Of a DNA stretch of 36,723 bases, positions 2,493 to 31,606 are shown piece by piece. Positions within the stretch are counted from its first letter, which is position 1. Each line of letters opens with the position of its first letter. Location: IMG/VR virus record IMGVR_UViG_2851976983_000007; one strand, given 5' to 3'. This DNA is from a virus. Its lineage: Duplodnaviria; Heunggongvirae; Uroviricota; Caudoviricetes. The notes beneath the pieces are model-generated. The model saw only the letters and a list, made by a program, of their open reading frames with translations. It had not been told where the DNA came from and did no database searches. The position numbers and the translations under genes are program-made.

Positions 2493-2753
2493 GTAATCCG
2501 CCTCCTTTGGATCAATACGAGTTGATATTTGTTACAAAACATTTTGATTTTATCAGATTTTTTTTTATTGATAAGTGTCAATTGATTAGCTGGTATAGAG
2601 TGAGACATATAGAAGGGCAGATCTGTATCAGTAGTGATGCAAAAATCCCACAGTTTCATGGAATTTTTGCATTTAGAGCCGTGAGATAGGGTGCCTTATC
2701 GACCTTACCCTGGCAACCGATTGACGGGGGATTACTCCCCCGTCGCGGTTTCC

Positions 2754-2894
2754 TTACTGCTTACACTGTAAGAACGCCGCAAACTCCGCTCCCCAGAAAC
2801 TCATCCGTATTTCGCACAGCGAACCGTGCAACATCCAGATGATGAGGATTACCGTCACGCAGAACGTGATGGCTGTAAGCGATTTTTGCGACAT
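2754..2894 (-). CDS. Hok/Gef-family type I toxin-like small membrane peptide (46 aa)
   Basis: Manual translation MSQKSLTAITFCVTVILIIWMLHGSLCEIRMSFWGAEFAAFLQCKQ: TM helix then SLCEIR...AAFLxC pattern as in HokA/HokC; AGGAG upstream; GC-rich hairpin GACGGGGGA-GTAA-TCCCCCGTC just downstream (about 2717-2738); below the 60-aa cutoff of the ORF track. Confidence 0.6.
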   Translation of the reverse strand: MSQKSLTAITFCVTVILIIWMLHGSLCEIRMSFWGAEFAAFLQCKQ

Positions 2895-3084
2895 AGCACT
2901 TGCTCCTTTTCCGGAGAGGCGCTAACCTTTCACTTGCTTAGGGTAGACGGTTAGGGCCTCGGTTAAACAAAAGTGTTTTCCGGGGCCTTTCCACATCTGG
3001 CCTTCGGGTATTCCCTCCGACCATCAGCCGAAAGGCACCCGCGCGTAATCTATCGCTTTTTTGTTACTCCGGCAATTCTGCTTG

Positions 3085-3536: not shown

Positions 3537-4559
3537 ATGGGAAGAGATATAACGCTGTACCCTAAAAAAGCAACTAGAAACGAACTTAAAAATTACCTTG
3601 AAAATTTAGGTTTTAAAAGGTGTAAACATTTGTGGGAATGGCCCCAAGGAACGTTGAATTACTCTTGGTTTGATGATACGGACTTCAAATCTACAGATGG
3701 AGTTTCGGCTGATATATATCCTGTTTCAAATGACGAATTACACATATCTGGTAATAAATGGGCATTGCATGTGCGTAATTTATATAGCGCTAGTTGGCAT
3801 GATGTAAAAATGCTTAATGATGTTCTAAAAGGCGCAAGGAGTCTTTTTGGTGGAACACTTATAGGTGATTATGGGAAAAATAGGTACGCTCCTCTATGGA
3901 AGGATTCTAGTAGTCCGATCAGTCGTGGCATTTCTTCAATATTTAATCATGTCCATCATGAGATTTCCGCTGTTAAACATGCCTTACCTGAACCTTCTAT
4001 TAAATTAAACCTACCGGAAGATGGCGGCTTATCCGAATACTTTGATTACATGCAATGTATGGATCCCAGTAGAGTTATATATAATGGATTAGTACCTTTT
4101 GCGGTTGCTATGTTTGAATACTTTTTCTCTAGAGCTTTTCAAATACTTATAAAGTACGATCCTTTCGCAATAGCAAAAAGAACATCGTATAAGCAAAAAG
4201 TTGATTTTGATATTCTGCTTGAGATAGAGAAAGGAAATATTTCAATAGAAAGTGTTATTGCAAGAAATTACACTTTTCAAAACTTAACCCACCTAAACAA
4301 AGCATATAAAGAGTGGCTGGATATAGATGTGAGAGCGATTCTTTATAAGAAAAAAAGAATTGGAAAATCAGTTGATTTTCTTGAGAATCGAATTTCTGAA
4401 ATCATACAATATAGACATGGGATAGTTCATCACTTTGAGTTGGATAGGACCTTAAATCGGGATGGATATATTCATATATTAGATGCGATAGAAAAAAGCA
4501 TAATTGAATTTATCCATTACATAGAAGGCAAATACAAATTTAAATTAAATGCGTATTAA
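3537..4559 (+). CDS. Low-GC cargo protein (340 aa), unknown function; C-terminal helical region with R-x4-H (QYRHGIVHH) suggests a HEPN-like domain; candidate abortive-infection/defence gene
   Basis: Strongly AT-rich ORF inserted between ogr and D on the opposite strand; own AT-rich upstream region with short direct repeats (GTGAAAATT x2, AATAGTT x2) and a downstream hairpin; no ATPase or nuclease motif I can recognise. Confidence 0.7.
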   Translation: MGRDITLYPKKATRNELKNYLENLGFKRCKHLWEWPQGTLNYSWFDDTDFKSTDGVSADIYPVSNDELHISGNKWALHVRNLYSASWHDVKMLNDVLKGARSLFGGTLIGDYGKNRYAPLWKDSSSPISRGISSIFNHVHHEISAVKHALPEPSIKLNLPEDGGLSEYFDYMQCMDPSRVIYNGLVPFAVAMFEYFFSRAFQILIKYDPFAIAKRTSYKQKVDFDILLEIEKGNISIESVIARNYTFQNLTHLNKAYKEWLDIDVRAILYKKKRIGKSVDFLENRISEIIQYRHGIVHHFELDRTLNRDGYIHILDAIEKSIIEFIHYIEGKYKFKLNAY

Positions 4560-26311: not shown

Positions 26312-26337
26312 CGCGCTTCGCTTGTCTGCTGCTTCGC

Positions 26338-26362
26338 CGGGGCATAAAAAATTTATGCCCCG
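26338..26362 (+). terminator. Hairpin GGGGCATAAA-AA-TTTATGCCCC downstream of Q
   Basis: Seen in sequence; no clear U-tract. Confidence 0.35.
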
Positions 26363-26767
26363 ACTCTCCAGCTCCTGTATCAGTCAGATAATTTCACGAC
26401 GCTTTCCTGCTGATTGCCATTATCGACAGTCAGACTCTTACGCAATCCCACCGCGTTGACTGCATGTTCTCGCCGTCTCAGTGCGATTTTGACGGCCTTA
26501 CCTTTCACCCCATCAAATCAAAAGCCCTCACGTCTTTTTCACGCTCAGCGTGAGAAATACAGCCATTCTGTTGTATCTCTGCGACATCGTTCAGGGAATG
26601 CTATTTACCCCCTGAAACGCGGGCTGTTCCCCCGTCACCTGCGCGCAGAAAAAACGCGTTTTTTTGTGCACGTACGGATCCTTGACGGATCCAGCCACCA
26701 CGCGGGCCGGAAGTACAAAAAGTCGTTCAAAAAAATTGTGCAAACTTGTGCACTATCGTGCAAACAA

Positions 26768-26795
26768 AAAAAGCGCCTTATCGGCGCTTCAAAAG
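26768..26795 (-). terminator. Intrinsic terminator (AAGCGCC-GATAA-GGCGCTT followed by T-run on the minus strand)
   Basis: Seen in sequence directly downstream of the 89-aa minus-strand ORF. Confidence 0.45.
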
Positions 26796-26797
26796 TA

Positions 26798-27067
26798 TCA
26801 ATTGTTGCTGTGTATTAATCGCCAACCACGAACATATGCTTCATAGGCATCTCTGTGCCTTACAGTTCCAGCCTGGCTAAACGGAATGTTAGCTAAAACT
26901 AAATCATTCTGAGCCATAGCGCGTCCTTCAAGCGCATCTTTTATGCCTAGCTCAAAAGCACAGGCAGCGCATTTGTGCCGACCTTCTTGTCCTTGATATT
27001 CAGGGAGAGACAGAAATGTTGGATTATAACGATGAGGGTTCTTGCAAATACCTGTTTTAGCCCGCAC
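26798..27067 (-). CDS. Hypothetical 89-aa protein (GTG start), low-GC hotspot cargo
   Basis: GAGGT SD 9 nt upstream of GTG; terminator immediately downstream; no recognisable family. Confidence 0.4.
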   Translation of the reverse strand: MRAKTGICKNPHRYNPTFLSLPEYQGQEGRHKCAACAFELGIKDALEGRAMAQNDLVLANIPFSQAGTVRHRDAYEAYVRGWRLIHSNN

Positions 27068-27092
27068 TTTATTTACCTCATAGGAAAAATAT

Positions 27093-27237
27093 GCGTGCCT
27101 TTACAGAGGTGCGTGTAAGCAATAAAATATACGACGCACATTTTGATTTACTTCGGAAGGCACGCATATCAGGTTAAGTGAGTCCGACCGAGTTTTACGC
27201 CCCAATAGTTGCTGCTATTGGGGCGTTTTGCATGGAC
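27093..27237 (+). ncRNA. Candidate structured small RNA or regulatory element: 13-bp long-range inverted repeat (ATATGCGTGCCTT ... AAGGCACGCATAT) followed by an intrinsic terminator (CGCCCCAATAG-TTGCTG-CTATTGGGGCG-TTTTG)
   Basis: Seen in sequence; lies antisense to the upstream region of the 89-aa gene; no promoter verified. Confidence 0.3.
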
Positions 27238-27431
27238 AATGCCGCGCAATTATCTTGTCGCTCACAATGCGAACGATCTTACAAAAAGGCACATTACTGT
27301 CAAGATAATTGATCGTTTTAATCGATAGATAATAGACAATCTATTTGTTTAACAGATCGATTATTGAAGTAAGTGTGCCAAGTGGAATGATACTGTCTCT
27401 ATAAACGTGAGCATTTTTCGCGCAGATGCTT

Positions 27432-27743
27432 TTACTCAGGAAATAACGCCCGGATATTCCCAGCCATCTGGCTGGTTATCTTAGCCACTGGTGCAGACTG
27501 TGCTTCAAACTTTTTTGAGCTGATTTGTGTCACAGGTAACATCTCATCATCAGCCCATGCGGCCAGTCGGTAAGCCTCTGCCGGATTCGTCTTCAGAAGT
27601 GCCAGCCCGGCCAGAAAAGCCACGCGTTGGCCGCTTTTGCGGGCTTCTGGTGTAAGGCTGTCCAGCCAGGCGCATGCTTCTCCTTCGTTCTTGACGGCAG
27701 CTGGCTTCAGATAGAAACTTATCCGTCTGGTTGGTGTTGTCAT
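27432..27743 (-). CDS. parR: ParR-like centromere-binding protein (type II partition adaptor)
   Basis: ISFYLKPAAVKNEGEACAWLDSLTPEARKSGQRVAFLAGLALLKTNP parallels R1 ParR IAFKLNPDVNQTDKIVCDTLDSIPQGERSRLNRAALTAGLALYRQNP; AAGGAG SD; start 5 nt after the parM-like stop; track ORF extends to 27878. Confidence 0.75.
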   Translation of the reverse strand: MTTPTRRISFYLKPAAVKNEGEACAWLDSLTPEARKSGQRVAFLAGLALLKTNPAEAYRLAAWADDEMLPVTQISSKKFEAQSAPVAKITSQMAGNIRALFPE

Positions 27744-27747
27744 TGGT

Positions 27748-28707
27748 TTACTCCTTGTCCATTGCGTACAGCCCATTAACCAGAGCAAACTGTGGCACCC
27801 CGTCCGCGATGAAAGTCGCATTAACTCCGCAGGCTTCGCGGATAGCGGGTGCCACAATCTCCGCCCCGCCACCGACAACCATCACCCGCCCGTAACCCGA
27901 AAAACCCGCCAGCGCGCGGATCACGCGTTGTTTCAGTGTTTCTTCCTTTTCACGAATAACCGCCATCAGGCTGTCGTAATGCGCGTCATTGTGGATGTGC
28001 TGGCGCAGCCAGGCTTCATCATGGCGATGTTCGATAATGGTATTGGCGATGTGGTGACTGGTACGCATACCGTTAGTGGCCATCACCGACAGTACGGCAT
28101 CGGCCATCAGGGAAACGCCTACGTGTGGATCGCAAAACACCTGGCTGATACCTGCCAGTTGTCCCTGAACCTTTGCCACATCCAGCGTGGTTCCGCCTAA
28201 ATCCACAATCAGCAGGGATTCAAACGGACTCATGTCAGCCAGTGCTTTAAAGCCAGCCGGAATGGATTCAGGCATAACCCGTACGTTACGGATAGTGAAT
28301 GCTTCGCCGTTCTGGTACTCCACCGGGCGCATGACGTTCGCTTTTTTGCGGTTGATGTTGGCCATGTCCGGCTGTGCGTTTGTGTCGAAATATTCGCTCA
28401 GTGGCAGGGTGACAACCACATCCACTTCCTGTGGTGTGATGCCTGATTTGACCAGCGCGTGATGAATGGCAATGACATTCACATCGCTGTACTGGTATTG
28501 CGTGTCGGTCGTCTGGACAAAGCGATCGCTGACCGGATCAAAACCATAGCGCACGCCATCAAGCATGTAGTTCGCGGGCTGCGTGCCACCGAACGGCGCA
28601 GACCATTCCGACTTGAAGCTGTTCGGGCTGATGGCGTTGCGGCGTTCGCCGTTCTCAGTCCATGCCAGCTTGATGTTGGTGGAGCCGTCATCGATACAAA
28701 TTTTCAT
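27748..28707 (-). CDS. parM: ParM/StbA-like actin-family ATPase (type II partition NTPase)
   Basis: MKICIDDGSTNIKLAW...YSDVNVIAIHHAL...VMPESIPAGF...LLIVDLGGTTLDV...GYGRVMVVGGGAE matches R1 ParM along its length. Confidence 0.9.
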   Translation of the reverse strand: MKICIDDGSTNIKLAWTENGERRNAISPNSFKSEWSAPFGGTQPANYMLDGVRYGFDPVSDRFVQTTDTQYQYSDVNVIAIHHALVKSGITPQEVDVVVTLPLSEYFDTNAQPDMANINRKKANVMRPVEYQNGEAFTIRNVRVMPESIPAGFKALADMSPFESLLIVDLGGTTLDVAKVQGQLAGISQVFCDPHVGVSLMADAVLSVMATNGMRTSHHIANTIIEHRHDEAWLRQHIHNDAHYDSLMAVIREKEETLKQRVIRALAGFSGYGRVMVVGGGAEIVAPAIREACGVNATFIADGVPQFALVNGLYAMDKE

Positions 28708-28736
28708 GTCGCTTTTCCTTATGTTGATTAATTAAT

Positions 28737-28850
28737 CGCTTACGGGATTCTGAAATCCCGTTTTTGCCTGTTTTATGCGCGCTTCATATATCGCGGCGCG
28801 TTTTTTGCTCATTTACGGGATTTGTGAATCCCGTTTCTGTCTGTTTTTTG
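28737..28850. promoter_or_regulatory. Two direct copies (about 73 bp apart) of a 20-bp palindrome ACGGGATT-N4-AATCCCGT each followed by a T-rich tract, upstream of the parM-like gene; candidate parC-like centromere/operator
   Basis: Seen in sequence at about 28742-28761 and 28815-28834; architecture resembles ParR sites flanking the par promoter. Confidence 0.5.
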
Positions 28851-28987
28851 TTTCCACTGGTCAGGCCACCCCGCAGCAGGTCTGCTTTGCGGCGGGCGCG
28901 TTCAGTGGTTTCACTGATTCTCTGTGCGTGCTCTGCGTCGCGGATGGCGCGCAGCATGTCAGAAAGCACGGTAACGGGTGTTTTCAT
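28784..28987 (-). CDS. Hypothetical small protein (67 aa) between A and the par module; its 3' end overlaps the palindromic repeats
   Basis: ORF only; weak SD. Confidence 0.3.
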   Translation of the reverse strand: MKTPVTVLSDMLRAIRDAEHAQRISETTERARRKADLLRGGLTSGNKKQTETGFTNPVNEQKTRRDI

Positions 28988-29185
28988 GGTGTTCTGGTCC
29001 TGCTGAAGTGTGGATGCCAGGCGTGCGGCGGCTTCGGGGTCTGATGCCCCCAGCTGTTCCAGATAGCTGGCGACCGGGTTATGGCGGATCTCCGTGCTGC
29101 TTACGCCGTGGTTACGGCTCAGGCGCTGCCAGAGCTGCGTGATCCGGCTGTCCGGTCGGGTATCCGGTTTGCGTACAATTTCAAA

Positions 29186-31606
29186 TCACTGCGGTGCAAT
29201 GATGCTGCCGTCGACGTACAGACTGCCGCCCCGTAACAGGTGCTGCATCTGCTGTTCACCGATATGCAGGCCGAGAGATTCAGCAGACTCCCGCCATTCT
29301 TTAGCGAGTAACTCGTGGTTATCAGGCAAAGGCCGTGGCTGTTTGCGGCTCTGTGTCCAGTTCTGCATTTCATCACTGCTGTTTTTTGCCTGTTTGTCAC
29401 GCAGCGAACGCATCAGCGCCCGGCGTTCGTGCCGTTTCAGTGAGCGCATCCATTCATTCACGTCAACGCCGTCAGGAAGCTGCGGCCACGGTGCTGGCCG
29501 TTCTTCCGGCTGTTCTGTCCCGTTGTTGTCCGTTTCCTGTACACGGGGACAGTTATTGCCACGAGTCCAAGGGGCGGCAGGGCCGCCCTGAAGGTCAAAA
29601 CCATTTTCGCGGGCGCTGTCTTCCGCTTCCGGTTTACGTCTTACCAGCTTCCAGTTATCCGGATGTGTGCACACACGGGAAGACTCCCCGATGAGCGGTG
29701 ACCAGATCCCGTAAATCTGTACGCTCTGTTCGCCGTAATCGTTCAGCTCATCTGCGAGGTCGTAGGCGGTGCGAATCAGGTAGTCTTTGCGTGGAACAAG
29801 TACGCCGCCCTGTTTTTCAATGTAGGAGGCAAAACACCCGGCATCAGCGGCAGCGAGCACTGCATCCATTGCGTCATCCTTCAGTCGTTGCGGGCCTTCC
29901 GGGTTGCGTGCCATCTGGCTGGCAAGGCGGCGCAGTTCACGCCACACCTGACGGGAGGGGATGCCAAAGAACTGGAACTGGCGGACCCGGTGAAGGCGCG
30001 CCCAGCCGATGGCGCGCTCCACGCTCTCGGCCATTGATTTTCCGGTTTCGTGGTCAACGCGTGGCTTGCCCGTTTTCGGGTCGATACCATCCACGGCGCG
30101 GCTGTCCAGGTTCTTTCCGATGTAGGTGGCGATGTAGCTGGTTGGCGTGCCTTTTGAGCCGTCGACGTACTCCGCCTTAAAACGCGGAGTTATGTCATCG
30201 CCCAGCTCGTGGCGGTCTTCCTGAATGGCAATATCGCAGACGTGGGACACGATGGTTTCAATCTCGTCCGGATGTGCAAAGACCATCATATGCCAGTGCA
30301 CAGTGCCGTCATGGTGAGGCTCCACCGTGCGGATGCCATACCAGCGAAGACCGTCGCGGTTCAGTTTTTTGCGGACCGCCGCAAAAAACGTGTTAACCAG
30401 GTAATCGCTGGAGTCGCGCATGGTGGCCCCGTTCCATTTGGGATTCGGATGACCGTTCTCTGTTGTGGCGTGGTATTTTGACGGGCAGGTGACAGTCAGA
30501 AACACCGCTCTGTCGCCACGGGCTTCGGCCAGAAGTTCCAGTCCCTTCATGGTGGCCATCATTTCTGCCTTACGGTGAACCGGGTTACTTACTCCCGCGT
30601 AATACACCGTCTCGAGATCAATCGTGAACCCGTCTTCATTTTCCAGCATGAAACTTTTCAGGAAATCGCGTGTTTTCTCGCGCTGTGCGCGAAACTCGCT
30701 TAACGCGTCCTGGCTCAGATAGGGTGATGTTTTTCTGGAAACCAGACAGGCGGCGCGGAGTTGTTCTTCTCTCCACTCGCAACGTAACAGCCACAGTTTG
30801 CGTTTCCACCATTCCGCACAGGTCAGGCGAAGGATTGCGCCCGGCAGCAGCTCCGTGTCCGGTTCGTTCCTCCGGTCTTTGTCTGTTGTCAGTGCGTCAT
30901 AATGTGGAGGCATGGCGTGCAGGTGTAACGCCATGCGGGCCAGCATCTGATACGCCTTCAGCGTTACATCCATGGTCAGTTCGCCATCAGTAGCGCCAAA
31001 GCCATCGCAGAGTTTTTCGAAGGTGCTGCTGAACATCGCCGCCGTCATGGTGGCCAGCGTCTGTATCTGGTGTTTGTTGAGCTGCGGCAGGTAAAGCAAA
31101 TCGTCCAGGCGTTCGCGTCCGGCAAGGGAGCGATAACCCGGTGTCAGCCAGCGGTGATCGGTGCGGTCCAGACGTTCGAATATTTTGCACAGGGTTCCGC
31201 GCGCGTAGCGTTCCGCCTGCCAGCTCTTTTTGCCTTTCTGACGATCGGCTTCCTGCTTCTTGCGCAGGAAGGAGAGGTGGCGAATAAGCGGATCGCGCAG
31301 ATAGGACGGCAGCAGGCGCAGCGAGGCCATGGCTTCATCCACCGCGCCGCGTGCCTGTTTTCTGGCGTCTCCTGCCAGTGTGATGGTTTTGTCCTGTTTT
31401 TCCTGTGCGTCCAGGCTTTTATTAATCAGGTTGCCCAGCGGCGTGGCGGAGAACGCCGCATCAGCCATTTCCTGGCGGCGCTCGTTCTCTACCCGGTAGG
31501 CATCCAGCCAGGAGGAAAGCGCGGATTCAGGAGCGGAGATCCCCGTTCCTTCACGCCCCACTGCGTGGCGCGGTTGTTGCCAGTCCCTGATGTACTCTGC
31601 CGTCAT
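29186..31606 (-). CDS. A: Replication initiation protein A (rolling-circle endonuclease)
   Basis: 806 aa; ...[24 protein letters not shown]... parallels P2 gpA ...[22 protein letters not shown]... Confidence 0.9.
   Translation of the reverse strand: [806 protein letters not shown]

Follow-up and report, generated by a model that had tools for sequence, protein, structure and literature searches.

What does an actin-type DNA segregation cassette, of the kind carried by the low-copy plasmid R1, do in a phage that resides in the bacterial chromosome? The question is raised by a stretch of 36,723 nucleotides (hereafter the window) from a P2-like prophage integrated between pdxB and flk on the E. 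coli chromosome, in which parM and parR lie downstream of the replication gene A. An earlier interpretation made from the letters of the window (the sequence-only reading) had called such a system unexpected in a P2-like prophage. This did not hold, since 24% of the complete E. coli genomes (1303 of 5426) carry parMR, parM and parR are already named in RefSeq, in the P88 genome record and in PHROGs, and Rousset et al. 2022 (PMC9122126) reported a "putative plasmid partitioning system" at the gpA-gpQ interval of E. coli P2-like phages, in about a fourth of them. The cassette is thus annotated, published and ordinary in P88-like prophages. The published mention is a single sentence, without analysis of the sites, of selection or of the linkage to the gene A type; added here are the purifying selection on parM, the invariant ends of ParR and a recurrent pair of GGG-N10-CCC sites at a spacing of 72–73 bp. 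We propose, with a probability of roughly 0.55, that the locus is a functional type II (ParMRC-type) DNA segregation cassette, fixed in the P88-like P2-type replication module and not accessory cargo.

ParM and ParR belong to the R1 families

The features of the locus are collected in Table 1. Pfam divided ParM into a StbA_N domain (PF06406; residues 1–157, E 1.8e-82) and the ParM C-terminal domain (PF21523; residues 159–316, E 1e-68), and R1 ParM (PDB 1mwk) aligned with residues 2–316 (E 1.3e-92), which bears out the full-length R1 ParM match claimed for the 319-aa protein. The nucleotide-binding motifs DDGSTNIKL, DLGGTTLD and GGGAE are kept in the alignment to 1mwk, and the PHROGs match, phrog_691, is annotated as "partition protein". 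The parM reading frame is intact in 95 of 96 related loci with a median dN/dS of 0.054, and comparison with the copy from a Hafnia metagenome-assembled genome (MAG) gave dN 0.023 and dS 0.61; parM is therefore under strong purifying selection (dN/dS about 0.05).

Directly downstream, parR begins after a gap of 4 nt from the parM stop codon; the sequence-only reading was right about the order and the ParR match and gave the distance as 5 nt. ParR matches PF10784, Plasmid_stab_B, the R1 ParR/StbB family (E 9.8e-24), so that the ParM and ParR family profiles that had been suggested as a check all matched (PF06406, PF21523, PF10784), while an NCBIfam search returned nothing but matches far under the cutoffs. 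Judged by their sequences, ParM and ParR of this prophage are true members of the ParM and ParR families.

ParR consists of a conserved N-terminal strand, TRRISFYLKP, a variable linker and a conserved C-terminal NIRALFPE. Among ParR alleles, which go down to 53% identity with strong divergence in the middle part, the N-terminal strand and the C-terminal NIxxLFPE motif are invariant, and the C-terminal N-I-x-x-(L/F/M)-F-P lines up both with the C-terminal end of R1 ParR and with NIKNLFPDDE in the IncI ParR. The dN/dS of parR is 0.24–0.30. A single-sequence PDB search with ParR gave no match; the profile built from its relatives had pB171 ParR (2jd3) as its top PDB match, a weak one (E 0.003, residues 9–75 versus 11–76), and from this similarity alone the N-terminus is a candidate ribbon-helix-helix fold. 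An AlphaFold2 monomer of low confidence (pLDDT 54) predicted helices at residues 20–29, 32–52, 54–61 and 87–100, with the N-terminal 19 residues unstructured.

Table 1. Features of the parMR locus, in window coordinates
Feature	Position	Strand	Description	Basis
Variable spacer, parR to portal gene Q	26312–27431		1120 bp in this prophage; true hotspot segment	
89-aa ORF in the variable spacer	26798–27067	minus	unknown function	phrog_3941
parR	27432–27743	minus	103 aa; predicted adaptor and DNA-binding protein	PF10784
Terminator-like hairpin	27450–27463	minus	3' end of parR	consensus match only
parM	27748–28707	minus	319 aa; actin-fold segregation ATPase	Pfam, R1 ParM match, phrog_691
Candidate parC region	28740–28850	minus	two 38-nt direct repeats around a 53-bp spacer with the end of gene A	
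38-nt direct repeats	28740–28777; 28813–28850		82% identical, spaced 73 bp	
Proximal palindrome, ACGGGATT-CTGA-AATCCCGT	28742–28761		candidate ParR site in the 76-bp gene A–parM spacer	
Distal palindrome, ACGGGATT-TGTG-AATCCCGT	28815–28834		candidate ParR site, 73 bp from the proximal one	
3' part of gene A	28784–29185	minus	residues 807–940 of the intact protein, cut off by a premature stop	phrog_6857, positions 723–855
Gene A, replication endonuclease, P88 type	29186–31606	minus	truncated, 806 aa	PF05840 Phage_GPA, E 1.4e-129

A conserved pair of palindromes upstream of parM

The two palindromes in direct repeat that had been described upstream of parM are present, each lying in a 38-nt repeat together with an A-rich tract, and the distal one falls within the 3' end of the gene A reading frame. 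They are the only matches of their kind in the window, with up to 3 mismatches allowed (0.14 expected), and all four exact AATCCCGT half-sites of the window lie within them; neither further half-sites or iterons nor a tandem iteron array was found there. The resemblance to the R1 parC thus extends to repeats upstream of parM and stops at their layout, two dispersed palindromes in place of tandem 11-bp iterons.

Both palindromes occur in all related loci that were compared (91/91), at -125 and -52 from the parM ATG (the GGG-N10-CCC core of the proximal one begins at -52), with conserved arms and a variable centre. In the relative from the Hafnia MAG (L091) the distal palindrome stands in a different reading frame, and gene A has its stop codon within it; because the frame differs, the palindrome is conserved as DNA and not as coding sequence. 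The GGG-N10-CCC pair with its 72–73 bp spacing recurs in divergent prophages of Hafnia and Plesiomonas, whose flanking and upstream DNA is only about 57% identical, and this recurrence supports a putative two-site centromere or operator, unlike the 11-bp iteron arrays of R1. The Serratia lineage has an altered ParR strand, NRKISFYLKP, and different upstream repeats. Based on these comparisons, the palindrome pair is a good candidate for the sites that ParR binds. The N-terminus and the range of palindrome variants are the same in the two ParR allele classes; since allele class and palindrome variant showed no association, the divergent middle part of ParR is not a specificity switch.

The palindromes had also been thought to flank a promoter, and no sigma-70 consensus promoter was detected between them at the threshold of the tool, in the window or in two relatives. 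By eye, the best candidate between them is TGAGCA-15 nt-TATATG, in which 7 of 12 positions are matched.

Might the palindromes have nothing to do with a centromere, and serve as RNA hairpins, antisense terminators or plain operators for ParR autoregulation without a role in segregation? The hairpins have folding energies of -10 to -12 kcal/mol, each palindrome has a T-rich tail after it and a terminator-like score on the plus strand, likewise in L091, and two sites only are unlike the known parC arrays. On the sense strand, however, the hairpins lack a U-tract behind them, and one of the palindromes is within gene A. Among 62 distinct sequences there are no compensatory arm changes, every arm variant being single-sided, and in the Hafnia and Plesiomonas prophages L100 and L099 the GGG-N10-CCC motif and the 72–73 bp spacing alone survive, with poor self-complementarity and weak hairpin potential, and in L100 without a terminator call. 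An operator role is in any case compatible with a centromere role, and in R1 the same sites act as operator and centromere. We therefore regard an exclusively non-centromeric function of the palindromes as unlikely.

Linkage of the cassette to the P88-type gene A

Gene A lies directly upstream of parM in the same orientation. In relatives it encodes an intact protein of 940 aa that ends at the equivalent of 28784, whereas in this prophage a premature TGA at 29186–29188 replaces the GGA of 81 of 88 relatives, and RefSeq lists the gene as a pseudogene with an "internal stop". This prophage, with its gene A truncated, may no longer replicate, and the cassette may therefore be idle in this copy.

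The survey of P2-like genomes that the sequence-only reading had suggested found the cassette tied to one type of gene A. ParM was present in 14 of 14 phage records with a P88-type gene A and in none of the other 364 phage records with a gpA homologue; gene A identity was at least 83% only in the 14 ParM-carrying records and at most 43% in the other 364. In the gene A comparison for complete E. coli genomes, the counts were 1278 for parMR and 1328 for the P88-type A. Searches for loci of close relatives gave only ParM proteins of 98–100% identity, and divergent lineages were reached through protein searches; in these, P2-like prophages from Plesiomonas, Hafnia, Serratia and Enterobacter, the divergent ParMR pairs (54–63% ParM identity) likewise lie between gene A and the portal gene. 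The cassette is a fixed part of the P88-like (Xuanwuvirus) P2-type replication module, not variable cargo.

This linkage bears on the proposals that the module is cargo of the slot that holds old and tin in P2, and that it has been repurposed for interference with plasmids or phages. The interval is a documented defence hotspot (PMC9122126), and the middle part of the ParR alleles is strongly divergent; an interference system could act by ParM filament poisoning, or by titration of the ParR of R1-type or IncI plasmids or of rival P88-like phages. Nevertheless, the presence of the cassette is invariant within the P88-type lineage, neither patchy nor swappable among close relatives, and the part that varies is the neighbouring spacer from parR to the portal gene, of 988–4166 bp across 62 loci. 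Selection on parM is strongly purifying and not diversifying, the closest plasmid ParM is only 52% identical, and the palindromes differ from the R1 parC iterons. A PADLOC scan that covered both proteins and the ORFs next to them gave no match, and the defence assignment was dropped. Nothing supports a defence role of the cassette, and we consider such an interference system in the gpA-gpQ hotspot very improbable. The module is neither a new defence candidate nor an anomaly; the true variable slot begins downstream of parR.

Prophages that carry the cassette are almost always integrated

Extrachromosomal maintenance had been suggested by the sequence-only reading, and Rousset et al. 2022 (PMC9122126) made a similar suggestion of plasmid maintenance. 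On this account the cassette would enable P88-like phages to be stably maintained as plasmid prophages at low copy number, with a facultative phage-plasmid lifestyle. Monomeric circles are the product of P2-type replication, and the true phage-plasmid D6 has a ParM homologue of 48% identity. A complete P88-like genome has moreover been deposited as a 34.4-kb circular "plasmid" (NZ_CP148288.1). Against this, of the 1451 places where parMR occurs in complete E. coli genomes, 1449 are on the chromosome and 2 on plasmid records, a continuous attP junction was found in none of 442 genomes with this integrase type, and int and cox are retained in all these P88-like phages. The circular record breaks exactly at the att boundary, as expected of an assembly loop from a partly excised prophage, and can be explained in that way. 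A plasmid-type, copy-controlled replicon is not evident, gene A being a rolling-circle initiator. Stable plasmid carriage of P88-like phages is at most rare, and a phage-plasmid lifestyle as the purpose of the cassette is improbable.

Two other sources were considered in this connection. "Escherichia phage 520873" was rejected as an example of an episome, since the record is linear, has host flanks (yecA) and an IS100 insertion, and represents an extracted prophage. The paper on the ETEC reference genomes describes P1-like and SSU5-like phage-plasmids, not this phage (PMC8085198).

A proposed role in segregating transient phage circles

The preferred reading, a functional ParMRC-type segregation cassette, suggests the following mechanism. 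ParR dimers would bind the two GGGATT-N4-AATCCC palindromes by the N-terminal ribbon strand TRRISFYLKP; at 73 bp, about 7 helical turns, the two sites would present the same face of the DNA, and a small partition and operator complex could assemble upstream of parM. The C-terminal NIxxLFPE helix of ParR would catch the ends of ATP-ParM filaments, if ParM polymerizes as its family membership suggests, and growing filaments would drive sister circular phage genomes apart. Because nearly all genomes carry the prophage in integrated form, a transient extrachromosomal circle would be the most likely substrate, present between infection and integration, following excision, or while gene A drives replication. 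Since the cassette has no detectable consensus promoter of its own, parMR is probably expressed by read-through from gene A, presumably early, with the early operon.

By analogy with srpMRC of the SXT/R391 elements and AlpAC of the prophage CGP3, segregation or positioning of a transient circular phage genome is the most likely role. Points that count against it are that there are two candidate sites where R1 parC has ten iterons, a small base for a complex that would hold ParM filaments, and that the advantage of partition for a phage that integrates efficiently is not obvious, and the literature searched holds no experimental work on the ParM cassette of P88 or Xuanwuvirus. A more far-reaching version, which we offer tentatively and hold to be rather unlikely, is a minimal two-site centromere (GGG-N10-CCC twice, 73 bp apart) coupled to a switch between integration and a heritable low-copy episome, or else a need for ParM filaments to position replicating P2-type circles for packaging.

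Given its occurrence in about 24% of complete E. coli genomes and the strong purifying selection, the cassette is clearly of some use to a prophage family that is very common; lysogenisation, surviving excision and organising replication are possible roles. If actin-like segregation proved necessary for an integrative P2-type phage, the knowledge gained from SXT/R391 ICEs and from the prophage CGP3 would be extended to a major enterobacterial phage group. The two-site candidate centromere, if true, would be an unusually small parC, and if the episome switch were true, a quarter of E. coli strains would carry a facultative P2-type phage-plasmid.

Comparison with known segregation systems

The closest likeness is to ParMRC of R1/R100, with a full-length ParM alignment at about 50% identity, conserved nucleotide-binding motifs, the same parM-parR order, the same Pfam family for ParR, a related C-terminal ParR motif and repeats upstream of parM. 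The differences are that R1 is a low-copy plasmid whereas the present cassette belongs to a chromosomal prophage, that R1 parC has two arrays of tandem 11-bp direct iterons, ten iterons in all, around a strong promoter, whereas here two 20-bp palindromes, the two candidate sites, lie 73 bp apart without a consensus promoter, and that ParR has 103 aa here and 117 aa in R1. The ParR of pB171 (2jd3), a ribbon-helix-helix adaptor, shows weak similarity to the ParR profile (E 0.003).

An actin-type system on a normally integrated element is known from srpMRC of the SXT/R391 ICEs, which acts on the transient excised circle and whose adaptor binds to repeats ahead of the gene for the ATPase (Carraro et al. 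2015, PMC4489591). SrpM is only a remote relative of R1 ParM, and no ParR domain is recognisable in SrpR (PMC4489591), whereas here both proteins are clear R1-family members, and the srpMRC host element is an ICE, not a phage. AlpAC/alpS of the Corynebacterium prophage CGP3 is, like the present cassette, encoded by an integrated prophage; its actin-like protein is co-transcribed with an adaptor whose binding site lies in its own upstream region (Donovan et al. 2015, PMC4446434); the genes are switched on early, and efficient replication of the phage DNA depends on them (PMC4446434). That system differs in its Gram-positive host, in an actin-like family unrelated in sequence, in the adaptor gene preceding the ATPase gene and in having been tested experimentally. 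Among phages, the StbA-type ParM of D6 is a homologue with 47.8% identity; D6, at 91 kb, is P1-like and a plasmid prophage, whereas the P88-like phages, at about 35 kb, are of the P2 type and integrate.

Gene A and the prophage

The analyzed stretch spans from flk to a phage integrase adjoining pdxB in the E. coli chromosome, and the prophage belongs to the P88 group (Xuanwuvirus, Peduoviridae). The ETEC strains 503025, B7A and TW10573 were identical to the window over the tested 2.9 kb. On the minus strand, gene A is followed by parM and parR. In P88 and most of its relatives, gene A encodes 940 aa and stops 76 bp before parM. In the window, a G-to-T change converts GGA (Gly), found at the equivalent codon in 81/88 relatives, to a premature in-frame TGA, leaving a product of 806 aa that lacks the final 134 residues; RefSeq annotates the gene as a pseudogene. 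This makes the 67-aa ORF by the palindromes the tail of gene A and places the distal palindrome within that gene's reading frame. The stop is private to the ETEC lineage of the window and may impair the prophage in replication. Between gene A and parM, a Hafnia locus (L100, 4453-4956) carries a separate 167-aa ORF at the position of the gene A C-terminal extension in P88, and an Enterobacter locus (L103, 3914-4848) carries a methyltransferase-like gene and a small ORF.

Features of the parMR region and other prophage genes, in window coordinates
Feature	Position	Strand	Remarks
parR	27432-27743	-	103 aa; PF10784 Plasmid_stab_B, E 9.8e-24
parR past codon 18	~27432-27690		end of nucleotide similarity in many E. 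coli genomes
terminator-like hairpin	end of parR		
parM	27748-28707	-	319 aa; Pfam StbA_N, E 1.8e-82; ParM C-terminal domain, E 1e-68
proximal palindrome	28742-28761		ACGGGATTCTGAAATCCCGT
distal palindrome	28815-28834		ACGGGATTTGTGAATCCCGT
gene A	29186-31606	-	upstream of parM, same orientation
premature TGA of gene A	29186-29188		
89-aa ORF	26798-27067	-	phrog_3941, E 6e-49, unknown function
340-aa ORF	3537-4559	+	
genes between ogr and flk junction	~1200-2500, ~2700-2900		

Family assignment of ParM and ParR

The resemblance of the 319-aa protein to R1 ParM along its length, proposed by the sequence-only reading, was borne out: R1 ParM (1mwk) aligned with residues 2-316 (E 1.3e-92), and the phosphate- and adenosine-binding motifs were retained. 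The profile search suggested there for ParM and ParR families matched StbA_N, the ParM C-terminal domain and PF10784, the last supporting a ParR downstream of ParM, with parR starting 4 nt, not 5 nt, past the parM stop. PHROGs places both proteins in existing 'partition protein' families, and PADLOC gave zero matches for the cassette. The best PDB match of a profile of ParR relatives was the pB171 ParR structure 2jd3 (E 0.003); the AlphaFold monomer model of ParR was of too low confidence (pLDDT 54) for a comparison of folds. As RefSeq, the P88 genome record and PHROGs had already named both genes, and a putative plasmid partitioning system at this locus was mentioned by Rousset et al. (2022; PMC9122126), the cassette is already known and its main interpretation already proposed, and the module is not unexpected as first thought. 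New are the strict tie to P88-type gene A, where the true variable segment lies, how strong purifying selection is, the conservation of both ParR ends, and a two-site candidate centromere conserved with a spacing of 72-73 bp.

Selection on parM and conserved ends of ParR

The parM ORF was intact in 95 of 96 collected loci. Median pairwise dN/dS was 0.054 for parM and 0.24-0.30 for parR; parM compared with the copy of a Hafnia MAG (L091) gave dN 0.023 and dS 0.61. The mid-part of ParR alleles diverges down to 53% identity, and two ends are invariant: the N-terminus MTTPTRRISFYLKP, which is expected to be the DNA-reading ribbon strand, and a C-terminal N-I-x-x-L/F-F-P-E motif that aligns with the C-termini of R1 ParR (NAMKLIN) and IncI ParR (NIKNLFPDDE). 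In R1, this part of ParR is the ParM-binding helix, as reportedly shown by Gayathri et al. (2012). Where nucleotide similarity ends inside parR, E. coli matches to the parC-parM-parR query begin at position 258 or 167; beyond the break, ParR is a 53-57% identical allele having the same first 17-18 and last 8 residues. A recombination boundary of the adjacent hotspot appears, from these alignments, to lie within parR.

Palindromes as a candidate centromere

Two upstream palindromes in direct repeat, as originally described, were confirmed in the window. Both are embedded in 38-nt direct repeats spaced 73 bp apart, and no further site of this type was found in the whole window. They occur at -125 and -52 from the parM ATG in 91/91 loci with enough upstream sequence, with conserved arms and a variable central 4 bp; at this level of divergence, such conservation alone is weak evidence. 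Comparison with other lineages makes it stronger in three ways. In the Hafnia MAG the flanking DNA differs and the stop codon of gene A falls in the middle of the distal palindrome, read in another frame, yet the palindrome and 73-bp spacing are retained. In Hafnia L100 and Plesiomonas L099 (ParM 62-63% identical, upstream DNA ~57% identical), GGG-N10-CCC pairs recur with spacings of 73 and 72 bp, about as far from the ATG. In the Serratia lineage, the ParR strand (NRKISFYLKP) and the upstream repeats are both different. Both E. coli ParR allele classes have one N-terminus in common and occur with a single shared set of palindrome variants.

No compensatory arm changes were seen among the palindromes of related loci, and the L100 and L099 sites are poorly self-complementary. 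These comparisons, with those above, favour protein-binding sites over RNA hairpins, although the E. coli versions do score terminator-like on the antisense strand.

In R1 parC, the promoter is flanked by two arrays of tandem 11-bp iterons, in contrast to the candidate parC of the window, which has no tandem array. Of the parC-like arrangement proposed earlier, the two spaced palindromes upstream of parM stand and the likeness to R1 parC is loose. No sigma-70 consensus promoter was detected around the palindromes or upstream of parM, and the idea that they flank a putative promoter was not upheld. By eye, the half-site AATCCCGTAAA bears a loose resemblance to the R1 iteron AAACCCATAAA, which is a lead only.

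Distribution and linkage to P88-type gene A

Of 5426 complete E. coli genomes, 1303 carried the parC-parM-parR stretch, at 1451 places (1449 chromosomal, 2 in plasmid records); the core of P88-type gene A was found in 1328 E. coli genomes and parMR in 1278. In the phage collection, this ParM type occurred in exactly the 14 records with P88-type gene A (at least 83% identity), and the remaining 364 records with a gpA homologue (gene A at most 43% identical) had no ParM. The varying segment is the spacer from parR to the portal gene (988-4166 bp, 62 loci). Based on this co-occurrence and the variable downstream spacer, parMR is a fixed component of the P88-type replication module, the defence/accessory hotspot begins downstream of parR, and the earlier view of the module as hotspot cargo is abandoned. 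The shared orientation of gene A and parMR, the 76-bp gap in which no promoter was detected, and the terminator-like hairpin at the end of parR suggest, by inference, that parMR is the tail of the early operon.

ParMR pairs with 54-63% ParM identity were found in P2-like prophages of Plesiomonas, Hafnia, Serratia and Enterobacter, likewise between gene A and the portal gene. The nearest plasmid ParM is of the IncI/K type (52% identical); the P1-like phage-plasmid D6 has a ParM at 48% identity, and a Dickeya homologue (49%) is located in a conjugative element. A 98% identical parM in a P88-like context was found in NZ_JBQPOM010000071.1 (L008), labelled Vagococcus sp.; the label, a Gram-positive genus, most likely reflects contamination or assembly mislabelling.

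Other genes in the prophage

The 89-aa ORF is the only ORF of the parR-to-portal spacer with a family match; it had no match in Pfam or PADLOC, and is unannotated by RefSeq in strain 503025 and annotated in phage 520873. The 340-aa ORF adjoins tail gene D on the ogr side, on the strand opposite D, with zero PADLOC matches and a sub-threshold RiboL-PSP-HEPN match (E 1.2e-4, 22.5 bits vs a cutoff of 28.4); it is possibly defence-type cargo that occupies a second variable site. Genes between ogr and the flk junction, named from RefSeq and Pfam, encode a Hok/Gef-family toxin, a zinc-ribbon protein and a TagO/VasI-like (type VI secretion-associated) protein, and are further cargo at the att-proximal end.

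Proposed mechanism and comparison with known systems

As judged from sequence, the cassette most likely encodes a working ParMRC system. Bound to the two phased sites, ParR would build a small complex for partition and operator function; ParM filaments, recruited by the ParR C-terminal helix, would push sister circles apart. Since the phage is integrated almost everywhere and a continuous attP junction was found in 0 of 442 genomes with this integrase type, the substrate is probably the circular phage genome in a transient phase: following infection or excision, or while gene A drives replication. Stable plasmid lysogeny of P88-like phages is possible but rare: one P88-like genome was deposited as a circular 34.4-kb plasmid, and the linear break of this record coincides with the att boundary, a pattern that fits assembly of excised circles. 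The proposed action of ParMRC on transient circles would have parallels in srpMRC, which stabilises SXT/R391 ICEs once they are excised (PMC4489591), and in AlpAC of prophage CGP3, which the phage DNA requires to replicate efficiently (PMC4446434).
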